DNA of 64,000 bases from an uncultured delta proteobacterium (lineage in GTDB: Bacteria; Desulfobacterota; Binatia; Binatales; Binataceae): the NCBI GenBank assembly GCA_963765675.1, contig CAVXXK010000006.1, positions 352,001-416,000 on the forward strand, in the 5' to 3' direction. A program made the translations under genes and the position numbers. Shown here piece by piece: positions 24,611 through 33,831 of this stretch. The notes beneath the pieces were generated by a model. It searched no databases, was not told the DNA's origin, and worked only from the letters and a program-made list of their open reading frames with translations. Positions within the stretch are counted from its first letter, which is position 1, and every line of letters starts with the position of its first letter.

Positions 24611-26413
24611 ATGACGGACCCGGCATCGATTCGCAATTTTTCGATTATCGCGCATATCGATCACGGCAAATCCACGCTTGCCGATCGATTGTTGGAGCGC
24701 ACCGGTGCGCTCACCAAGCGCGAGTTGAAGGAACAGTTCCTCGACTCGATGGACTTGGAGCGTGAGCGCGGCATCACGATCAAAGCGCGCAGCGTGCGCC
24801 TGTCCTACACTTCGCGTGCGGGCAAAACCTACGTGCTCAACCTGATCGACACTCCCGGCCACGTGGATTTCGCCTACGAGGTCTCGCGCAGCCTGGCCGC
24901 GTGCGAGGGCGCGCTGCTGGTCGTCGACGCGAGCCAGGGGGTCGAGGCGCAGACGCTGGCCAATGTTTACCTCGCGCTCGATCACGGGCTTGAAATTATC
25001 CCGGTGATCAACAAGATCGATCTGCCCGGCGCCGACGTCGAGCGAACCCGCCAGCAGATCGAGGAAGTGATCGGCCTGCCCGCCGATGACGCGATTCTAA
25101 CCAGCGCGAAAGAGGGCGTCGGCATCGACGACGTGCTCGAGGCGATCGTAGCGAGAATTCCCGCACCCAAGGCAAATCGCGACGAGCCGCTGCGCGCTCT
25201 CATCTTCGATAGCTGGTACGACAGCTACGAAGGCGTGGTCGGACTGGTGCGCGTCACCAGCGGCGAGCTTCGCCCCGAAATGAAGATCCGCCTCATGGCG
25301 ACGGGTGCGGCGGGCGAAGTGATGCGCCTGGGTCATTTCACACCGCACGAGCAATCCGCCGACATGCTCGGCCCGGGCGAGGTCGGCTACGTCGTCGCGG
25401 GAATCAAGACCGTCGCTGACATGCGCGTGGGCGACACGGTCACCGACGCGGAGCATCCGGCGGCCGAGCCGCTTCCCGGCTTCAAGGAACTCAAGCCGAT
25501 GGTCTTCGCCGGGCTCTACCCGACCGAGGCGAACCAGTATCCCGCTCTGCGCGACGCGATCGAGAAGCTGACGCTCAACGACGCGAGCCTCATCTGCGAG
25601 CCGGAATCCTCGCAGGCGCTGGGCTTCGGCTTCCGCGCCGGATTCCTCGGGTTGCTGCACATGGAGATCGCGCAGGAGCGGCTCGAGCGCGAATTCGGAA
25701 TCAACCTGATCGTCACCGCGCCCACCGTCGCCTACCAGATTCGCACGACTTCCGGTACGACCATGATGGTTGATAATCCGGCGCTGCTTCCGCCCGAGAA
25801 TTCGATCGAGGCGATCGAGGAGCCGTTCATCATCTCGTCGATTCACATGCCCGAGGAATTTTTGGGCGCGGTGATGAAGCTGTGCGAGGACCGCCGCGGC
25901 CTGCAGCGCGATCTCAAGTACCTGGGCGACAAGCGCGTTATCCTGCACTACGAGCTTCCGCTGGCGGAGATTGTGTTCGACTTCTACGACCGGCTCAAAT
26001 CGGTCAGCCGCGGCTACGCGTCGCTCGATTATGACTTTCTGGACTTCCGGTCCGGGCCTCTGGTTAAATTGGATATCAGGATCAACGGTGAGATAATCGA
26101 CGCGCTCTCGATAATTGTGCATCGCGACAAGGCCTACGAACGAGGCCGCGCGCTTTGCTCGAAGATGCGCGAGCTGATTCCGCGCCAGATGTTCGAGGTC
26201 GCGATTCAAGCCGCGATCGGCGCCAAGATTATCGCGCGGGAAACCGTAAGCGCACTGCGCAAGAACGTCACCGCGAAATGCTACGGCGGCGATATCACGC
26301 GCAAACGCAAACTCCTCGAGAAGCAGAAGGAAGGCAAAAAGCGGATGAAGCAAGTCGGCCGCGTCGAAATTCCGCAGGAGGCCTTCCTGGCCCTGCTGAA
26401 GGTCGGGGAGTAA
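24611..26413 (+). CDS. lepA: Elongation factor 4
   Basis: [36 protein letters not shown]. Confidence 0.98.
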
Positions 26414-26418
26414 CCGCG

Positions 26419-27126
26419 GTGAGCGAACCCCTGCGCTCCGCTGAGCGCCGCGAAGTCGCCGCGAGGGCGGTTCCCGCTGCGCGAAAGTCGGTCCTGCGCG
26501 AGTACGGCGAGGCGCTCGGAATCGCGCTGCTCCTGGCGATTCTGATCCGCACTTTCTTTATCCAGGCCTACGAAATTCCGTCGGGTTCGATGGAGCCGAC
26601 GCTGCTGGTCGGCGATCATATCCTGGCCAACAAGCTGGTCTATGGTTTCCGGATGCCGGATTCGATCTTCGGCCTGACTCCCTTCGGTCTGCCTTACGGG
26701 CACTATCTCTTTCGCTTTGAGCCGATTCATCGCGGCGACGTGGTCGTGTTCGTCTATCCGCGCAACCCGAGCGAGGACTATATCAAGCGCGTAGTCGGAA
26801 TCGCGGGCGACGTTGTCCAGATCAAGGACGGCAAGGTATGGCTCAACGGCGCGCCGATGGACGATCCGCACGGGCACTTCGAAGTGCCCGACGCCGACCG
26901 CTCAACCTCGCAGGTGCGCGACTACTTCGGTCCGGTCACCGTGCCGCCGGGCAATCTGTTCATGATGGGCGATAATCGCGACGATAGCTCTGACAGCCGC
27001 TTCTGGGGCTTCGCGCCCGAGGAAAATGTCGAAGGCCGTGCGATGGTGATCTACTGGTCGTGGGACAGCGACGAGGGTGGTATCCTGCCACTGCGATGGT
27101 CGCGTTTCGGGATGCCGGTCCGGTAG
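26419..27126 (+). CDS. lepB: Signal peptidase I (copy 1)
   Basis: GTG start 26419; IPSGSMEPTL, YIKR, GDNRDDSSDSR. Confidence 0.92.
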   Translation: MSEPLRSAERREVAARAVPAARKSVLREYGEALGIALLLAILIRTFFIQAYEIPSGSMEPTLLVGDHILANKLVYGFRMPDSIFGLTPFGLPYGHYLFRFEPIHRGDVVVFVYPRNPSEDYIKRVVGIAGDVVQIKDGKVWLNGAPMDDPHGHFEVPDADRSTSQVRDYFGPVTVPPGNLFMMGDNRDDSSDSRFWGFAPEENVEGRAMVIYWSWDSDEGGILPLRWSRFGMPVR

Positions 27127-27212
27127 GATTGCACGGCACGCGGCAGAGTCGTCAGGAAAGGCGCTGATGATTGATCAGGAATGTATCGCGGAGATGGCGG
27201 AGTAGGGTGGCG

Positions 27213-27962
27213 ATGGGCGAGCCGTTGCGTACGCTGAAGCCTTCCGCGAAGCCGTCGGGATCGTCGCGCCCGGCGCCGCCGCCGGCGCAGAAATCGATCA
27301 CCCGCGAGTACGTCGAGGCGCTCGTGATCGCGCTGCTTCTCGCGGTCGTGATCCGGACGTTTTTCGTCCAGGCCTACAAGATTCCTTCCGGATCGATGGA
27401 GCCCACGCTGCTGGTGGGCGACCACATTCTCGTCAACAAGCTTATCTACGGCTTGCGAATGCCCGATACGCTCTTCGGGATCGACATTGGGTCAGCGCCC
27501 TTCGGCAGGTACCTGTTTCGAATTGAACCGATTCATCATGGCGACGTGGTGGTGTTCGTGTTCCCACCCGACCCGACCAAAGACTTTATCAAGCGGGTGA
27601 TCGGACTTCCGGGCGACATTGTTGCGGTCAAGAATGGCAAAGTATGGCTCAACGGCGCACTGATGCCCGATCCTCACGCGCATTTCGAGGTGCCAGACGC
27701 CGAACGCTCAGCCGTCTCGCCTCGTGACAACTTTCCGCAGATCGGCACGGGAGCCGACACGCTCGGCGCGGTGACCGTTCCGCCGGGAAAGATTTTCGTG
27801 ATGGGGGATAATCGCGATCGGAGCTACGATAGCCGCTTCTGGGGTTTCGTCCCGGAAGACAATGTCGAAGGGCGCGCGATGATTATCTACTGGTCGTGGG
27901 ACTCCGATGGCAGCAGCTTTCTGCCTGTCAGATGGTCGCGCTTCGGGATGATTGTCGAATAG
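27213..27962 (+). CDS. lepB: Signal peptidase I (copy 2)
   Basis: IPSGSMEPTL, FIKR, GDNRDRSYDSR. Confidence 0.93.
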   Translation: MGEPLRTLKPSAKPSGSSRPAPPPAQKSITREYVEALVIALLLAVVIRTFFVQAYKIPSGSMEPTLLVGDHILVNKLIYGLRMPDTLFGIDIGSAPFGRYLFRIEPIHHGDVVVFVFPPDPTKDFIKRVIGLPGDIVAVKNGKVWLNGALMPDPHAHFEVPDAERSAVSPRDNFPQIGTGADTLGAVTVPPGKIFVMGDNRDRSYDSRFWGFVPEDNVEGRAMIIYWSWDSDGSSFLPVRWSRFGMIVE

Positions 27963-28618: not shown

Positions 28619-28660
28619 GCAGCGCTTGATTTTCTGAGGCGACAGCGTAATAGTAGTCCT

Positions 28661-28693
28661 ACCTTTAATCCGTTACTGAGATAGCGGGAAGGT
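28661..28693 (+). promoter_or_regulatory. PyrR-binding RNA stem-loop (anti-antiterminator)
   Basis: ACCTTTAA-T-CCGTTA-CTGAGA-TAGCGG-GAAGGT: U-rich CUUUAA lower stem, CNGNGA hexaloop and GAAGG closing strand, directly upstream of pyrR. Confidence 0.8.
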
Positions 28694-28724
28694 TAACATG
28701 ATGAATTTCCCTAGCTTTGGCGTA

Positions 28725-28755
28725 CCCGGCTGCATCTGCGGTCGGGATTTTTTTT
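28725..28755 (+). terminator. Intrinsic attenuator terminator of the pyr leader
   Basis: CCCGGCTGCA-TC-TGCGGTCGGG hairpin followed by A and a T8 run. Confidence 0.85.
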
Positions 28756-28786
28756 CGCTCCGAGCGCTTCCGGCAGGGCTCTCACG

Positions 28787-29329
28787 ATGACGCCCAAGCC
28801 GGAAGTCGCGCTCGACGCCAATGCGATCGCGCGTTCGGTCAAGCGAATCGCGCATGAGATTGTCGAGCATAGTGATGGCGCAGGTGCGCTCGTGCTGATC
28901 GGAATCGTGCGCCGCGGTGCGTTCCTGGCCGAGCGAATCGCGGCGGAATTGATACGCGCAGGCCATACCGAGATCCCTGTCGGCACGCTCGATATTTCGT
29001 CTTATCGCGACGACGGCAAAGGCGCGCCCGGCGACCCGCGCCTGCTCGCCCGCGATATCCCGTTTTCGCTCGACGACAAGCGCGTCGTGCTGGTGGATGA
29101 CGTCCTCTACACCGGACGCACCGTGCGCGCCGCACTCGATGCGCTGTCCGACCTCGGGCGGGCTGATTCGATTCAGCTAGCGGTGCTGGTCGATCGCGGC
29201 GAGCGCGAACTTCCTATCCGCGCCGACTTTATCGGCAAGAATATCCAGGCCCCGGCCGGGCAGCGGGTCTATGTCCGGCTGGCCGAGGTTGACGGAACCG
29301 ACGCGGTCGTGGTCGGCAACGGAAAATGA
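28787..29329 (+). CDS. pyrR: Pyrimidine operon attenuation protein / uracil phosphoribosyltransferase
   Basis: KRIAHEI, LDISSYRDD, VDDVLYTGRT, RELPIRADFIGK. Confidence 0.95.
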   Translation: MTPKPEVALDANAIARSVKRIAHEIVEHSDGAGALVLIGIVRRGAFLAERIAAELIRAGHTEIPVGTLDISSYRDDGKGAPGDPRLLARDIPFSLDDKRVVLVDDVLYTGRTVRAALDALSDLGRADSIQLAVLVDRGERELPIRADFIGKNIQAPAGQRVYVRLAEVDGTDAVVVGNGK

Positions 29330-31272
29330 CGCGTCTTGGCAAAATCGATCTCGTTTCGATCGAGGATCTCGCGCTGCCCGAGATCGAGCGCATCTTTACG
29401 CTCGCCGACGGTTTCGCCGGTGCGCTCGAGCGTGGGGAATCGCTCACGCTCGCAAGCGGGCTCATCATGGCGACGCTCTTTTACGAGCCCTCGACTCGCA
29501 CGCGGCTCAGTTTCGAATCCGCGATGCATCGGCTTGGCGGCGCCGTGATCAGCTCAGCCGACATGAGTGCGAGCTCGGCAGCCAAAGGCGAGAGCCTGGC
29601 CGACACGGCGCGGATCGTCAGCGGCTACGCGGACCTGATCGTGCTTCGGCATCCGCACGACGGCGCGGCGCGCGTCGCGGCCGACTACGCGCCGTGCCCG
29701 ATCATCAACGCCGGCGACGGCAGCAGGGAGCATCCGACTCAGACGCTGTGCGATCTGTTCACGCTGCGGCGCAAGAAGGGTCAGCTAAAGGGACTCACCG
29801 TTGCGCTTTGCGGAGATTTGAAATTCGGCCGCACCGTCCATTCGCTGATTTACGCGCTCGCGCGCTTCGGCGCGAATATCGTCGCGGTTCCTACCGCCGG
29901 CATGAACGTGCCCGATTACGTGCTCGAACGTCTGGCGGCGGAACGCCACTACAGTTTTTCGACCGTTACGATGGACGAGCTCAAGTCGCTGGCCGGCGGC
30001 CTCGACGCGCTTTACCTGACGCCGAGTGCGCCGCATCAGATGGCGCTGTTCACCGGCGAGGTTCCACTCGACAAGATTCCTGCCGCCGAGCCGCCAGCCT
30101 CGCTCGACGCATTTTATGTCACGCGGCTGCAGAAGGAGCGAATCGCAAGCAAGGACGCAAAGCCTGCCGATTATGTCCGCTTCGACGCGAGCGCGCTAAA
30201 GGGGCATCGTGCACAGGAAGCCGTCGTGATGCATCCGCTGCCGCGCACCGGCGAACTTGCCTACGAACTTGATTCCGATCCGCGAGCGGTATACTTCGAG
30301 CAAGCCGCCGCCGGCGTGCCTGTGAGAATGGCGCTGATCGCTTGGCTCCTGGAGCAGACGCGAGGGGCGCGGCGCGCGCCAGTCGCAGCGCTTGAGAATA
30401 TCCGTATCCAGGCCGAACCGTCGCCGCGATGCGCGAACCCGAATTGCATAACTCGGTTCGAGGGCGCGCATCTGCATCCGCGGTTCAAGCTCACGCGCGC
30501 AGTCGAGCGCAGCGCGCTGCCACTGCGCTGCGATTTTTGCGAGCGCGAATTGCGGGTGGAATTCGTCGGCCACGCGCGAACTCATCGCTACTACCGCTAC
30601 GATGAGAGCCTGTACGGTTACGTCCGCCAGTGGATCGCCGAGGATTCCATGGCCGTGTTCGAAAACGTCAAGCAGGCCGAGGAGACCGGCTACGAACCCT
30701 ACAAGCGCGGGCCTCAGCGCGAAGTGATGAACGCGGACGAAATCGAGCGCGCGGTAGATTCGATGGCTGCGCAAGTGATTGCCGACGTCGCGGACCTCAC
30801 CAATGTCTCGATCGTCGGCGTCGTCAGCCACGGCGCGATGCTCGCGATACGAATGCGCGATCGGATCGCAGCCAAATCCGGAGTCCGTCCGCCTACCGCC
30901 GCGCTGGACCTCTACAATCCCGCCGAGACAGTCGTCGCACTCGACAGCGGCGAGCCGCTCGCGGTCGCGGATCGCGTGATCATAATCGTTGACGATGTGC
31001 TCAACAGCGGGTGGACCGTGCAGCGCGCGATGACCACGCTATGGCAGCAGGGGCGGCCCGCGTCGGTGAAGCTGGCCGTGCTGATCGACCGCGGACATCG
31101 CCTGGTTCCGATTCGCCCCAACTACGTCGGCAAAAACATTCCGACCTCGCGCACCGATCGCGTGCAGGTGCGGCTCGAGCCGCCCGACCGCGAAGGAAAA
31201 CACCCCGCGCATGACCGCGCGATGGTCTATTCGATGGTCGAGGCGCTGAAAGCACCGGAGAGCGTCGGATGA
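29326..31272 (+). CDS. pyrB: Aspartate carbamoyltransferase fused to a PyrI-type zinc domain and a C-terminal PyrR-like PRT domain
   Basis: FYEPSTRT, KGES, HPTQ, GDLKFGRTVHSL, TRLQKER, MHPLP; CANPNC...CDFC; VDDVLNSGWT...DRGHR...VGKNIPT. Confidence 0.93.
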   Translation: MTRLGKIDLVSIEDLALPEIERIFTLADGFAGALERGESLTLASGLIMATLFYEPSTRTRLSFESAMHRLGGAVISSADMSASSAAKGESLADTARIVSGYADLIVLRHPHDGAARVAADYAPCPIINAGDGSREHPTQTLCDLFTLRRKKGQLKGLTVALCGDLKFGRTVHSLIYALARFGANIVAVPTAGMNVPDYVLERLAAERHYSFSTVTMDELKSLAGGLDALYLTPSAPHQMALFTGEVPLDKIPAAEPPASLDAFYVTRLQKERIASKDAKPADYVRFDASALKGHRAQEAVVMHPLPRTGELAYELDSDPRAVYFEQAAAGVPVRMALIAWLLEQTRGARRAPVAALENIRIQAEPSPRCANPNCITRFEGAHLHPRFKLTRAVERSALPLRCDFCERELRVEFVGHARTHRYYRYDESLYGYVRQWIAEDSMAVFENVKQAEETGYEPYKRGPQREVMNADEIERAVDSMAAQVIADVADLTNVSIVGVVSHGAMLAIRMRDRIAAKSGVRPPTAALDLYNPAETVVALDSGEPLAVADRVIIIVDDVLNSGWTVQRAMTTLWQQGRPASVKLAVLIDRGHRLVPIRPNYVGKNIPTSRTDRVQVRLEPPDREGKHPAHDRAMVYSMVEALKAPESVG

Positions 31273-32636
31273 CCACCGCAGTGCTTATCCGCGGCGGACG
31301 CGTGATCGATCCCGCCTCGGGAATCGACGGGAGCTTCGATCTACTCGTGCAGGACGGCGAGATCGAAGCGCTCGAACCCGCCGGAACGATCGAAGATCCC
31401 GGCAATGTGACCATGATCCACGCCGCGGGATGCTGGGTCGTGCCGGGCCTTATCGACGCGCACGTGCATCTGCGCGACCCCGGCTTCCCGGAAAAGGAAA
31501 CCATCGCGACCGGCCTGCGCGCTGCCGCCGCCGGCGGATTCACCGCCGTCGCTGCGATGGCTAACACCAATCCGGTGAACGACTCGCCCGCGACGACCGC
31601 GTACATGCTCGGGCGTGCCGACGACGCGCATGCTGCGCGCTTGATTCCAGTCTCTGCAGTAACTCGAGGATTGGCGGGCGTCGAGTGTGTGGACTACGCC
31701 GCCATGGCTCAAGCCGGCGCGCGACTCTTCTCCGACGACGGGATGCCGGTTGACGACCCTGTGCTGCTCGGCCGCGCGATGGACGAAATCGGACGATTGA
31801 ATTTGGCTATCTCTCTGCACGAGGAAGATCGCGGCCTGTCCTGCAACGGCGCGGCCAACGCCGGCGAGGTCTCGCGCAGCCTCGGCGTCACCGGATACAG
31901 CGATGCGGCGGAAGCGAAGCGAATCCGGCGCGACTTGGCGCTCGCGATCGGATCCGGTGCGCCGGTTCATATCGCGCACGTATCGACGCGCGAATCGCTC
32001 GACCTCATTCGCGCCGCGCGGCGCAACGGAGCGCGGGTGACGTGCGAGGTGACTCCACATCATTTCGGGCTCGACGAACGAGCGGTCCTGCGCTGGGGTC
32101 CCAACGCGAAAATGAATCCGCCCCTGCGTTCACCTGACGATGTCGCCTCGATTCACGAAGCGATCGCCGACGGCACGATCGACATGATCGCGAGCGATCA
32201 CGCGCCGCACGACCCCGGCTCGAAGCATCTGGATCGCGTGGCGGCATACTTCGATCCCGCACGCGAGGCGGACGTGCTCGCGCCCGCGGTGGCGAAAGAG
32301 TTCTCTGCCGCCGCCAACGGCATTGTCGGGCTGGAGACCTCGCTTGGTCTCGCGCTGGAATTGGTGCATCGATCATTGATTAGCGCCGCGCGATTGGTTG
32401 AGATGATGAGCCTGAATCCCGCGGCGCTTTTGCGTATGGATGCGGGAAATCTCGCACCGGGAGGACCGGCGGATATTACGGTGATTGATCCGAACCTCGA
32501 ATGGACCGTCGAGCCGGCGCATTTTTTGTCGAAGAGCCGCAACACTCCGTTCGCCGGCAGACGACTGCGAGGCAGGGCGCGATTGACGATCGTCGCGGGC
32601 GAAATCGTCTTCGATGCGCGCAAGGTGGAGCGATGA
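31269..32636 (+). CDS. pyrC: Dihydroorotase (type I)
   Basis: [45 protein letters not shown]. Confidence 0.95.
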
Positions 32637-33831
32637 GTACGCCGCAGCGGCCCGCGATCCTGGCACTCGCCGACGGACGGATCTTTCGCGGACGCGCATT
32701 CGGCGCTATCGGCGAACGAACCGGTGAGGTCGTATTCAACACCGCGATGACCGGGTATCAGGAAGTGCTGACCGACCCCTCGTACAAGGGGCAGCTCGTC
32801 TGCATGACCTATCCGGAGATCGGAAACGTCGGAATCAATCGCGAAGACGCCGAGTCGCGGCGGATTTACGTCGAGGGCTTTATCGTCCGCGAGTATTGGG
32901 ACCGCCCGTCAAACTGGCGCGCGGAAATGCCACTCGGTAAATATCTGGAAGAAGCTCGAGTTCCCGGAATTGAAGGAATCGACACGCGCGCGCTGGTCCG
33001 CCATATCCGCGAGCACGGCGCGCAGGAAGCGGTCCTTTCGAGCGTCGATCTCGACGCCGCTTCGCTGGTCAGAAAAGCAAAGGCTTCTCCGGGCCTGGTC
33101 GGGCGCGACCTGGTGAAAGAAGTCACCTGCGCCGAGGCCTACGATTGGGAAACCGGCGCGTGGCGTCTCGACGGTGGCTACCGGCCCGCGACGCGCGAGG
33201 AATTGCGCGATGCGCCGCTGGTCATCGCGCTGGATTACGGAATCAAGCTCAATATCCTGCGCCAGCTCGTCGCGACAGGTTTTCGCGTGCGCGTGATGCC
33301 GGCGCGGTCGAGCGCCGAGGAAATTCTGGCTGCGAATCCCGACGGCATTTTTCTTTCCAACGGACCCGCTGATCCGGCGGCCCTCCCGTACGCTCACAAA
33401 GCGGTCGCGGGAGTTCTGGGCAAGCGCCCGGTATTCGGCATTTGCCTGGGGCATCAGATAATCGGGCTGGCGCTCGGGGGAAAACGTACAAGCTCGACTT
33501 CGGGCATCATGGCGCGAATCATCCGGTGATGGATCTGCGCACGCGCAAGGTCGAGATCACTTCGCAGAATCACGGCTTCGCGGTTGATTCCGATTCGGTC
33601 GCCGGACGTGCCGAGCTGTCGCATCTGAATCTCAATGATCGCACGGTCGAAGGATTGCGGGGGGAGGGCTCTCCATTTTTCTCGGTGCAGTATCATCCCG
33701 AGGCGTCACCGGGTCCGCACGATTCGAGCTACCTGTTCAAACGCTTCAAGCGGATGGTCGAGCTGTATCCAAAACATGGCGCGGAAACGCTCGACCGCGT
33801 CGCCGCCGAAGAAGCTGCCGCCGCGAAATGA
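32633..33831 (+). CDS. carA: Carbamoyl-phosphate synthase small subunit; one-base deletion near 33480
   Basis: [25 protein letters not shown]; [16 protein letters not shown] and QYHPE lie in a shifted frame after the GGGGGGAAAA run. Confidence 0.93.

Follow-up and report, generated by a model that had tools for sequence, protein, structure and literature searches.

A 64,000-nucleotide (nt) stretch of DNA from an uncultured soil bacterium of the Binataceae (hereafter the window; all its coordinates are positions of this whole stretch and refer to the (+) strand) contains a gene in which the catalytic chain of aspartate carbamoyltransferase (ATCase) is joined to the zinc domain of the regulatory protein PyrI, to a conserved linker module and to a phosphoribosyltransferase (PRTase) domain derived from PyrR. 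The gene (29326..31272) is an uninterrupted open reading frame (ORF) with an ATG start that encodes 648 amino acids (aa) plus stop. We give about even odds to the reading that its product unites ATCase and a regulatory subunit in one chain, the sensor of this subunit having been swapped. ATCase is the textbook model of allostery, and its known bacterial forms are bare trimers, complexes with PyrI and complexes with dihydroorotase. The full-text literature searched, with most subscription journals outside its scope, holds no description of an ATCase-PyrR fusion or of a Binatia ATCase and, judged from the sequence, the enzyme and the domains of the protein appear to be familiar ones, combined in a regulatory arrangement that this literature does not describe. 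A preliminary description of this DNA had suggested an undescribed regulatory class, which holds for the literature searched only.

Domain composition of the fused protein

Four Pfam families, OTCace_N, OTCace, PyrI_C and Pribosyltran, match the fused protein, each over its curated cut-off. The carbamoyl-phosphate domain (OTCace_N, PF02729; aa 8-148, 29347..29769) is recognised at E 3e-44, and its STRTR, K, R and HPTQ residues are invariant in comparison with E. coli PyrB. It is followed by the aspartate domain and the C-terminal helix of the catalytic part (aa 149-345, 29770..30360), where OTCace (PF00185) matches in two stretches, best at aa 259-341 (E 2e-18). The PyrI-type zinc domain (PyrI_C, PF02748; aa 368-410, 30427..30555) scores 31.4 bits against a cut-off of 23.4 and passes into the structured linker module (aa 411-465, 30556..30720). 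The PRTase domain (aa 466-623, 30721..31194) reaches 54 bits with Pribosyltran (PF00156; cut-off 26.3) at aa 469-602, and the protein is closed by a tail (aa 624-648, 31195..31269), in which D630 and Y635 are nearly invariant and which is modelled with a low predicted local distance difference test (pLDDT) score. PF01948, the allosteric domain of PyrI, had no match in this Pfam scan of the fused protein.

These results bear out what the preliminary description had read from the letters, i.e. a complete ATCase catalytic chain at aa 1-345 (OTCace_N/OTCace, the model TIGR00670 and the substrate residues agree), a PyrI zinc domain at C369-C405 lacking the N-terminal domain of PyrI (PF02748 is over its cut-off, PF01948 unmatched) and a C-terminal PyrR homologue with the motifs VDDVLNSGWT and DRGHR...GKNIPT, both of which are present. 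It overlooked an insertion of ~39 residues in the aspartate domain, the conserved module of 55 residues and the separate lineage of the catalytic part.

The catalytic part and its insertion

The model TIGR00670 (aspartate carbamoyltransferase; cut-off 236.95 bits) is matched at 290.1 bits, or at 293.3 bits in a genome-wide search. In the alignments all substrate-binding residues are invariant, both in comparison with E. coli PyrB and among 44 family members; we take these residues to be S52, T53, R54, T55, K84, R105, H134, Q137, R167, R229 and Q231 of the E. coli enzyme in the numbering of the literature, which is the alignment position minus 1. For example, R267 and Q269 of the fused protein align with R230 and Q232 of E. 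coli PyrB, counted as alignment positions. The closest solved chains are the ATCases of M. jannaschii (E 1.4e-78) and P. abyssi (E 3.9e-76), then CAD and E. coli (~1e-64), and the enzymes of B. subtilis (2at2, E 1.5e-33) and Aquifex (3d6n, E 1e-25) are more distant. A fold search is consistent with this archaeal affinity, matching P. abyssi 1ml4 with a template modelling (TM) score of 0.87 (target-normalised). The catalytic part thus belongs to the archaeal/E. coli lineage, which normally works with PyrI.

The insertion (aa 220-258, 29983..30099) is absent from M. jannaschii 2rgw and from E. coli PyrB. It lies directly before the strand that carries the equivalents of the aspartate-binding residues R229 and Q231, has two invariant residues (P233 and L241) and a nearly invariant one (Q238) among the 44 sequences, and is modelled with pLDDT <50. 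It looks like a partial duplication of the aspartate-binding strand (LDALYLTP / LDAFYVTR). The stretch reads GGLDALYLTP... and then ASLDAFYVTRLQKER, with a proline in the first copy at the position of E. coli R229. The AlphaFold2 (AF2) model sets the first copy in the sheet, and the second, catalytic copy is at pLDDT <50.

The zinc domain and the linker module

When the fused protein is aligned directly with E. coli PyrI, C369, C374, C402 and C405 fall on C109, C114, C138 and C141, and the equivalents of N111, E119, F125 and L136 are conserved as well. In E. coli, it is through this zinc domain that the regulatory chain grips the catalytic chains. The match to M. jannaschii PyrI (2yww) has E 0.0057. 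PyrI residues 1 to ~95 found no counterpart in the fused protein in the alignment with the E. coli chain; at the other end, the fused protein runs on beyond the C-terminus of PyrI as the module of aa 411-465.

Among 22 diverse sequences the linker module has four invariant residues (G415, W436, F445 and A451) and a nearly invariant stretch, VFxSVKQAEExGYEPY. It is predicted as a small alpha/beta unit (beta-beta-beta-alpha-beta-alpha) with pLDDT 82-90. Foldseek returned no match at E up to 0.001, and in a wide structure search all similarities were weak (Z <5), the top rows including N-Ada (1u8b_A, Z 4.6, root mean square deviation 3.3, 60 residues aligned; 1eyf_A, Z 4.0) and PyrI zinc domains at Z 4.1. 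The stretch F.S...AE..GY.PYK.G resembles an Ada motif, which we recall as ...GFRPCKRC, with the cysteines missing. PF02805 found no match to the fused protein at E up to 1, and the linker module lacks the second cysteine pair.

The PyrR-derived domain

Solved PyrR structures match the PRTase domain at E 3.5e-29. Among the PyrR equivalog models NF003549 is the best, and aa 464-623 reach 129.6 bits with it, just under its cut-off of 138. The domain is 34% identical to the free PyrR encoded directly upstream. In a comparison by columns (24 fused domains against 88 rows of free PyrR, three of which, P0351, P0262 and P0265, are really fragments of fused proteins), both groups share V555, D556, D557, V558, G562 and T564, the helix after the phosphoribosyl pyrophosphate (PRPP) loop, G576-R577-P578, and D588, R589, G590, R592 and G602 together with the histidine and the lysine (K603) of the hood. 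The acidic pair of the PRPP loop and its G.T (D556, D557, G562, T564) are invariant in the 24 fused domains and in the 44 family sequences. By contrast, free PyrRs alone are characterised by (free numbering) R20 (73 of the 88 rows), R74-D75-D76 (80, 83 and 80), R111 (85) and R114. The equivalent of R20 is S, E or A in the fused domains, and the full [YF]RDD motif is found in only two of the 24, P0246 and P0287. The arginine of the TGRT loop (R111) is tryptophan in 16 and arginine in seven of the 24, the window's family reading NSGWT, and the residue of the pyrophosphate (PPi) loop varies between H, R, K, A and E.

The first helix of free PyrR carries the signature R..[ST]R[IL]AHEI, and RNA binding by this helix in B. 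subtilis PyrR presumably takes place through T18, R19, H22 and R27. The fused domains have no such signature. Their first helix has a mean net charge of -3.8 (range -6 to -1) as against -0.5 in 83 free PyrRs (P0351, P0262 and P0265 left out), and 1.5 as against 4.5 basic residues (K, R and H). The loss of the basic helix and of the YRDD motif, both claimed previously, is confirmed, with P0246 and P0287 as the exceptions for the motif. By these sequence features, the fused domain retains the phosphate/PRPP-binding core and has lost the RNA-helix signature and the R-D-D loop.

A quick maximum-likelihood tree unites the fused domains of the window's class (Shimodaira-Hasegawa-like approximate likelihood ratio test, SH-aLRT, 91), collects the free PyrRs from these loci in a second group (95) and sets the window's family on a long branch (1.11). 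The fused domain therefore represents an old lineage apart from the neighbouring PyrR. Its derivation from PyrR, as proposed in the preliminary description, stands; an origin as a recent copy of the adjoining gene does not.

The structure of a homodimer of the C-terminal half (2 x aa 346-648, with an alignment of 44 rows) was predicted with a score of 0.56 (runs 0.52, 0.59 and 0.56), the best of three controls scoring 0.29. Between runs, 55% or more of the contacts coincide, and the partner has a pLDDT of at least 74. Of 30 proteins solved as pairs of one chain, 20 pass the mark applied here, as against one of 23 that were solved as single chains. The predicted interface is symmetric and lies inside the PRTase domain (residues 554, 561, 565-566, 569-570, 573, 578-583 and 593-599).

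Distribution of the fusion

With aa 340-648 as query, and within the length range covered, 739 proteins match at E up to 0.001. The best 120 of them combine PRTase and OTCace domains without exception, and 118 of these 120 have PyrI_C as well; the named sources among them are Binataceae/Binatus or 'Deltaproteobacteria' metagenome-assembled genomes (MAGs). In databases such proteins are called 'phosphoribosyltransferase family protein' or 'aspartate carbamoyltransferase catalytic subunit'. Among 1.84 billion cluster representatives, only 20 proteins reach E 1e-30 or better with the last 303 residues, and these include the full-length four-domain proteins P0244, P0246 and P0287 at only 30-39% identity. 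The fusion itself, as described previously, is therefore confirmed by homologues, with the four-domain architecture recurring in independent assemblies.

A scan of species genomes yielded 192 confirmed loci with the zinc and linker module. The module occurs in three of 201 genomes of an even sample across the phylum and in 46 of 151 genomes of the window's class, where it is present in all or none of the members of a family. The window's genome aside, it was found in all 45 genomes of five families (f1 17/17, f86 8/8, f87 1/1, f89 17/17 and f95 2/2), and in none of the 105 genomes of fourteen other families of the class. These related genomes are not independent observations, and f1 includes an unpublished genome (G282), without which its count is 16/16. 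Of the class matches, 45 extend into the linker module and are embedded in open frames of 624-844 aa; the one exception (G174) is a piece of 36 residues where a contig ends. An uninterrupted frame of 636-658 aa is found at 22 diverse genome loci. Between families the full protein is 39-50% identical (44 sequences) and the module down to 36-49%, which points to long-standing conservation of the architecture.

Public sequencing reads were uninformative either way: 10 DNA sets contain the contig in part (highest share 0.36) and no RNA set does, and the reads of four of these DNA sets gave only short fragments of low depth, in which no domain junction is spanned by 31 letters and no insertions or deletions are listed. 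We also considered a separate regulatory gene, as suggested by split forms, and rejected it, the pieces (80-350 aa) lying mostly on contigs of 1-4 kb and the few on long contigs being apparent frameshifts. Such split or frameshifted copies are P0248, P0257, and P0164 and P0223 on one contig. An occurrence in a second phylum was rejected likewise, the genome of the 'Acidoferrales' (Acidobacteriota) member being placed in the window's class, as was a wide spread implied by copies labelled Acidiferrales, Trinickia (on a 1.6-kb contig) or Thermodesulfobacteriota, which are 67-76% identical to the window's. The records with odd labels are L068, L088, L055 and P0244, and the labels probably reflect binning or labelling noise in MAG sets.

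A rare short form of 452-461 aa was found as three proteins (P0401-P0403, 65-100% identity) and in one genome of a single-genome class of the same phylum. In it the catalytic part, insertion included, is followed by the zinc domain and the linker module, and the chain ends in ...AGFHP with no PRTase domain; in the genome (G006; L007:1507-2862, (-) strand) its gene is followed by pyrC after 59 nt. Since the insertion is present in this form, it travels with the zinc and linker module rather than with the PRTase domain.

The operon and the exchange of its ATCase

Genes in this part of the window are ordered lepA, lepB, lepB, a small ORF, pyrR, the fused gene, pyrC, carA and carB. The free pyrR (28787..29329; 180 aa) scores 211.5 bits with NF003549 (cut-off 138), and its product has the YRDD and TGRT motifs and the RIAHEI helix. 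Overlaps of the type ATGA join the fused gene with pyrR on its 5' side and with pyrC (31269..32636; dihydroorotase, 455 aa, PF01979 and PF12890), the start of which overlaps its stop, on its 3' side. Upstream of pyrR, a leader RNA (28658..28756) resembles the PyrR binding site (Rfam RF00515, 33.7 bits, E 0.087, full model 1-115 matched), although its score falls under the gathering score of 54. It has a GC-rich hairpin and a U8 run and ends 30 nt 5' of the pyrR start, which suggests classical PyrR attenuation of the pyr operon. Of 102 loci, 96 have a free pyrR 5' of the fused gene, and the remaining six are cut by a contig end. In most loci pyrC lies 3' of it; in seven of the 102 (L025-L029, L037 and L038, of families f86 and f95) carA-carB follow directly and no pyrC is present in the cluster.

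No match to PF01948 was found in the window's genome, which is 95.6% complete (control genomes were positive), and neither a second PF02748 match nor any other ATCase over the cut-off was found in it. As the sole ATCase of the genome, the fused protein must supply this activity. In five complete genomes of sister families without the module PyrI_C was not found, and four of the five have pyrR, a plain pyrB of ~310-330 aa and pyrC in the same order. While the PyrR (47-57%) and PyrC (45-50%) of these sisters resemble the window's, their PyrB is 66-72% identical to that of genome G218 and only 34-37% to the fused catalytic part, with B. subtilis ATCase as the best solved match. Flanking genes that are alike around a PyrB of another lineage indicate that one ATCase lineage has replaced the other in situ, within a conserved pyrR-pyrB-pyrC operon; on these comparisons either lineage may be ancestral in the class. 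A further sister-family genome (G224, locus L021), a single contig of 99% completeness, has neither an ATCase over the TIGR00670 cut-off nor the zinc module, and its best match to this model (145.7 bits) is probably an ornithine carbamoyltransferase.

Two observations concern other genes of the window. The gene carA (32501-33831) is found in two frames (ORFs 32501..33529 and 33442..33831) that break near 33476-33484 at a G5A4 run, where one added base restores the usual reading ...LGGKTYKL...; the break is either a homopolymer error of the assembly or a genuine frameshift. After lepA lie two tandem paralogues of signal peptidase I (LepB-like, 26155-27962), the C-terminal ~200 residues of which are closely alike.

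Comparison with known systems

The fused protein shares with the E. coli class B holoenzyme (PyrB6:PyrI6) the catalytic lineage, all substrate residues and a zinc domain corresponding to PyrI residues ~100-141. It differs from it in being one polypeptide instead of two, in the absence of the domain that binds cytidine or adenosine triphosphate (CTP/ATP; PF01948) from protein and genome alike, in the order of its regulatory parts, which is reversed with the PRTase fold after the zinc domain, and in the additional 55-residue module and 39-residue insertion. Fused PyrB-PyrI proteins (NF009916, 'bifunctional catalytic/regulatory subunit'), of which we take Thermotoga and Treponema to provide examples, likewise have both parts and the zinc domain in one chain. 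However, the fused protein scores 82.5 bits with this model (cut-off 800), and such fusions keep the whole of PyrI including its allosteric domain, where the window's protein has the PyrR-like domain instead.

With PyrR itself (solved as 1a3c, 1non, 1ufr, 1w30 and 4p80-4p86) the C-terminal domain has in common the fold family, the acidic pair of the PRPP loop, G.T, DRGHR...GK and a predicted homodimer, but it is fused to an enzyme, forms its own clade and is without the RNA-helix signature, the R-D-D loop and, mostly, the TGRT arginine. Finally, class A or Aquifex-type complexes of ATCase and dihydroorotase are products of operons with an adjoining pyrC, and the overlap of pyrC with the fused gene recalls this arrangement. 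By contrast, the catalytic part is distant from that of Aquifex (3d6n), and pyrC is missing from the cluster in the seven loci mentioned above.

Proposed function and alternative explanations

In the mechanism that we propose, the PRTase domain would stand in place of the missing nucleotide-binding domain of PyrI. It would bind a pyrimidine nucleotide (uridine mono- or triphosphate, UMP or UTP, by analogy with PyrR), possibly with PRPP or a guanine nucleotide as antagonist, and would pair with its counterpart on a chain of another catalytic trimer. The zinc domain would have been retained to hold the catalytic chains, and a ligand-dependent change could travel from the linker module to the zinc domain and on to the catalytic trimers. 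In this way end products would curb pyrimidine synthesis at its first committed step, and the adjoining free PyrR would keep control of the operon at the RNA level. We infer ligand binding, allosteric signalling and the oligomeric state (presumably a hexamer), with UMP/UTP taken over from PyrR. RNA binding by PyrR is known to respond to UMP/UTP and PRPP (PMC6524683).

The preliminary description had likewise proposed that a PyrR paralogue was recruited as a feedback module signalling through the zinc domain. This proposal is favoured by a real fusion of long-standing conservation, a sole ATCase in a genome with no match to PF01948, the zinc domain with its ligands, the PRPP core, the loss of the RNA-helix signature, the predicted dimer and the complete free PyrR with its PyrR-site-like leader next to the gene. 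Several points weigh against it. The existence of the short form implies that the zinc and linker module can function without the PRTase domain. The order of zinc domain and sensor, the reverse of that in PyrI, does not guarantee the geometry of a PyrI-like holoenzyme. In the structure predictions the zinc domain was not reported to touch the catalytic part, and AF2 gives pLDDT <50 for aa 590-648 and 235-285. Since PyrR dimers have already been solved, the dimer score may show only this likeness or the memory of the model. The exchange of the loop arginine for tryptophan and the variable residue of the PPi loop indicate that the ligand may differ from that of PyrR.

The proposal can be widened: the protein would then represent one more class of regulated ATCase, with the zinc domain of PyrI kept as a 'transmission' domain and the CTP/ATP sensor exchanged for a PRTase sensor of the PyrR type that would read UMP/UTP (perhaps guanosine triphosphate, GTP, or PRPP). 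One fold would then control the pathway twice within an operon, at the RNA and at the enzyme, with the short form and the insertion as steps of its assembly. We hold this wider reading tentatively, at somewhat less than even odds.

Alternatively, the PRTase domain could be a structural module only, which dimerises and stabilises an oligomer of two trimers and senses no ligand. The predicted symmetric dimer, the loss of several residues conserved in free PyrR and the long branch (1.11) to the window's family would fit such a role, which we nevertheless regard as rather unlikely: the phosphate loop and the DRGHR/GK hood are fully or almost fully conserved among 44 sequences whose overall identity between families is no higher than 39-50%, and this is hard to account for without a bound ligand.

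A lower probability still is given to a bifunctional enzyme, in which the C-terminal domain would be an active uracil phosphoribosyltransferase (UPRTase) that joins de novo synthesis and salvage in the absence of allosteric coupling. In its favour, a search of the genome (95.6% complete) for upp (TIGR01091) was negative, the acidic pair of the PRPP loop and the G.T are invariant, and FRDD/YRDD and S/TGRT persist in P0246 and P0287, the two fused proteins most distant from the rest; PyrR itself retains some UPRTase activity (PMC6524683). On the other hand, these two are the only ones with [YF]RDD among the 24 fused domains, the loop arginine is tryptophan in 16 of the 24, and the residue of the PPi loop is variable. 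Moreover, the adjoining free PyrR keeps all these motifs and could supply the UPRTase, and a plain bifunctional fusion would need neither the zinc domain of PyrI nor a conserved linker.

It seems very improbable that the fused domain is coupled to RNA, i.e. that it pairs with free PyrR or binds the pyr leader and that the enzyme in this way titrates the attenuation regulator or recruits it. A free PyrR always adjoins, the two domains are homologous (34% identity) and proteins of the PyrR family dimerise; yet the helix at the R..[ST]R[IL]AHEI position is acidic in all 24 fused domains (net -6 to -1), and fused and free domains form separate old clades. An artefact, with a frameshift or misassembly joining pyrB, a remnant of pyrI and a second pyrR, might be suspected from the nearby frame break in carA and the split database copies, but is as good as eliminated by the intact frames at 22 diverse loci and in the 45 class matches, by the domain content of the best 120 of the 739 matches and by independent assemblies.

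Implications

Our findings document an in-situ swap of ATCase lineages in a conserved operon, and intact copies of the fused gene are present in many genomes. They should be of interest to researchers of allostery, on the basis of sequence inference from uncultured organisms. If the proposed function is true, the protein would provide a natural test of allosteric sensors as exchangeable modules, and one regulator fold would have been re-used at two levels of the same pathway.

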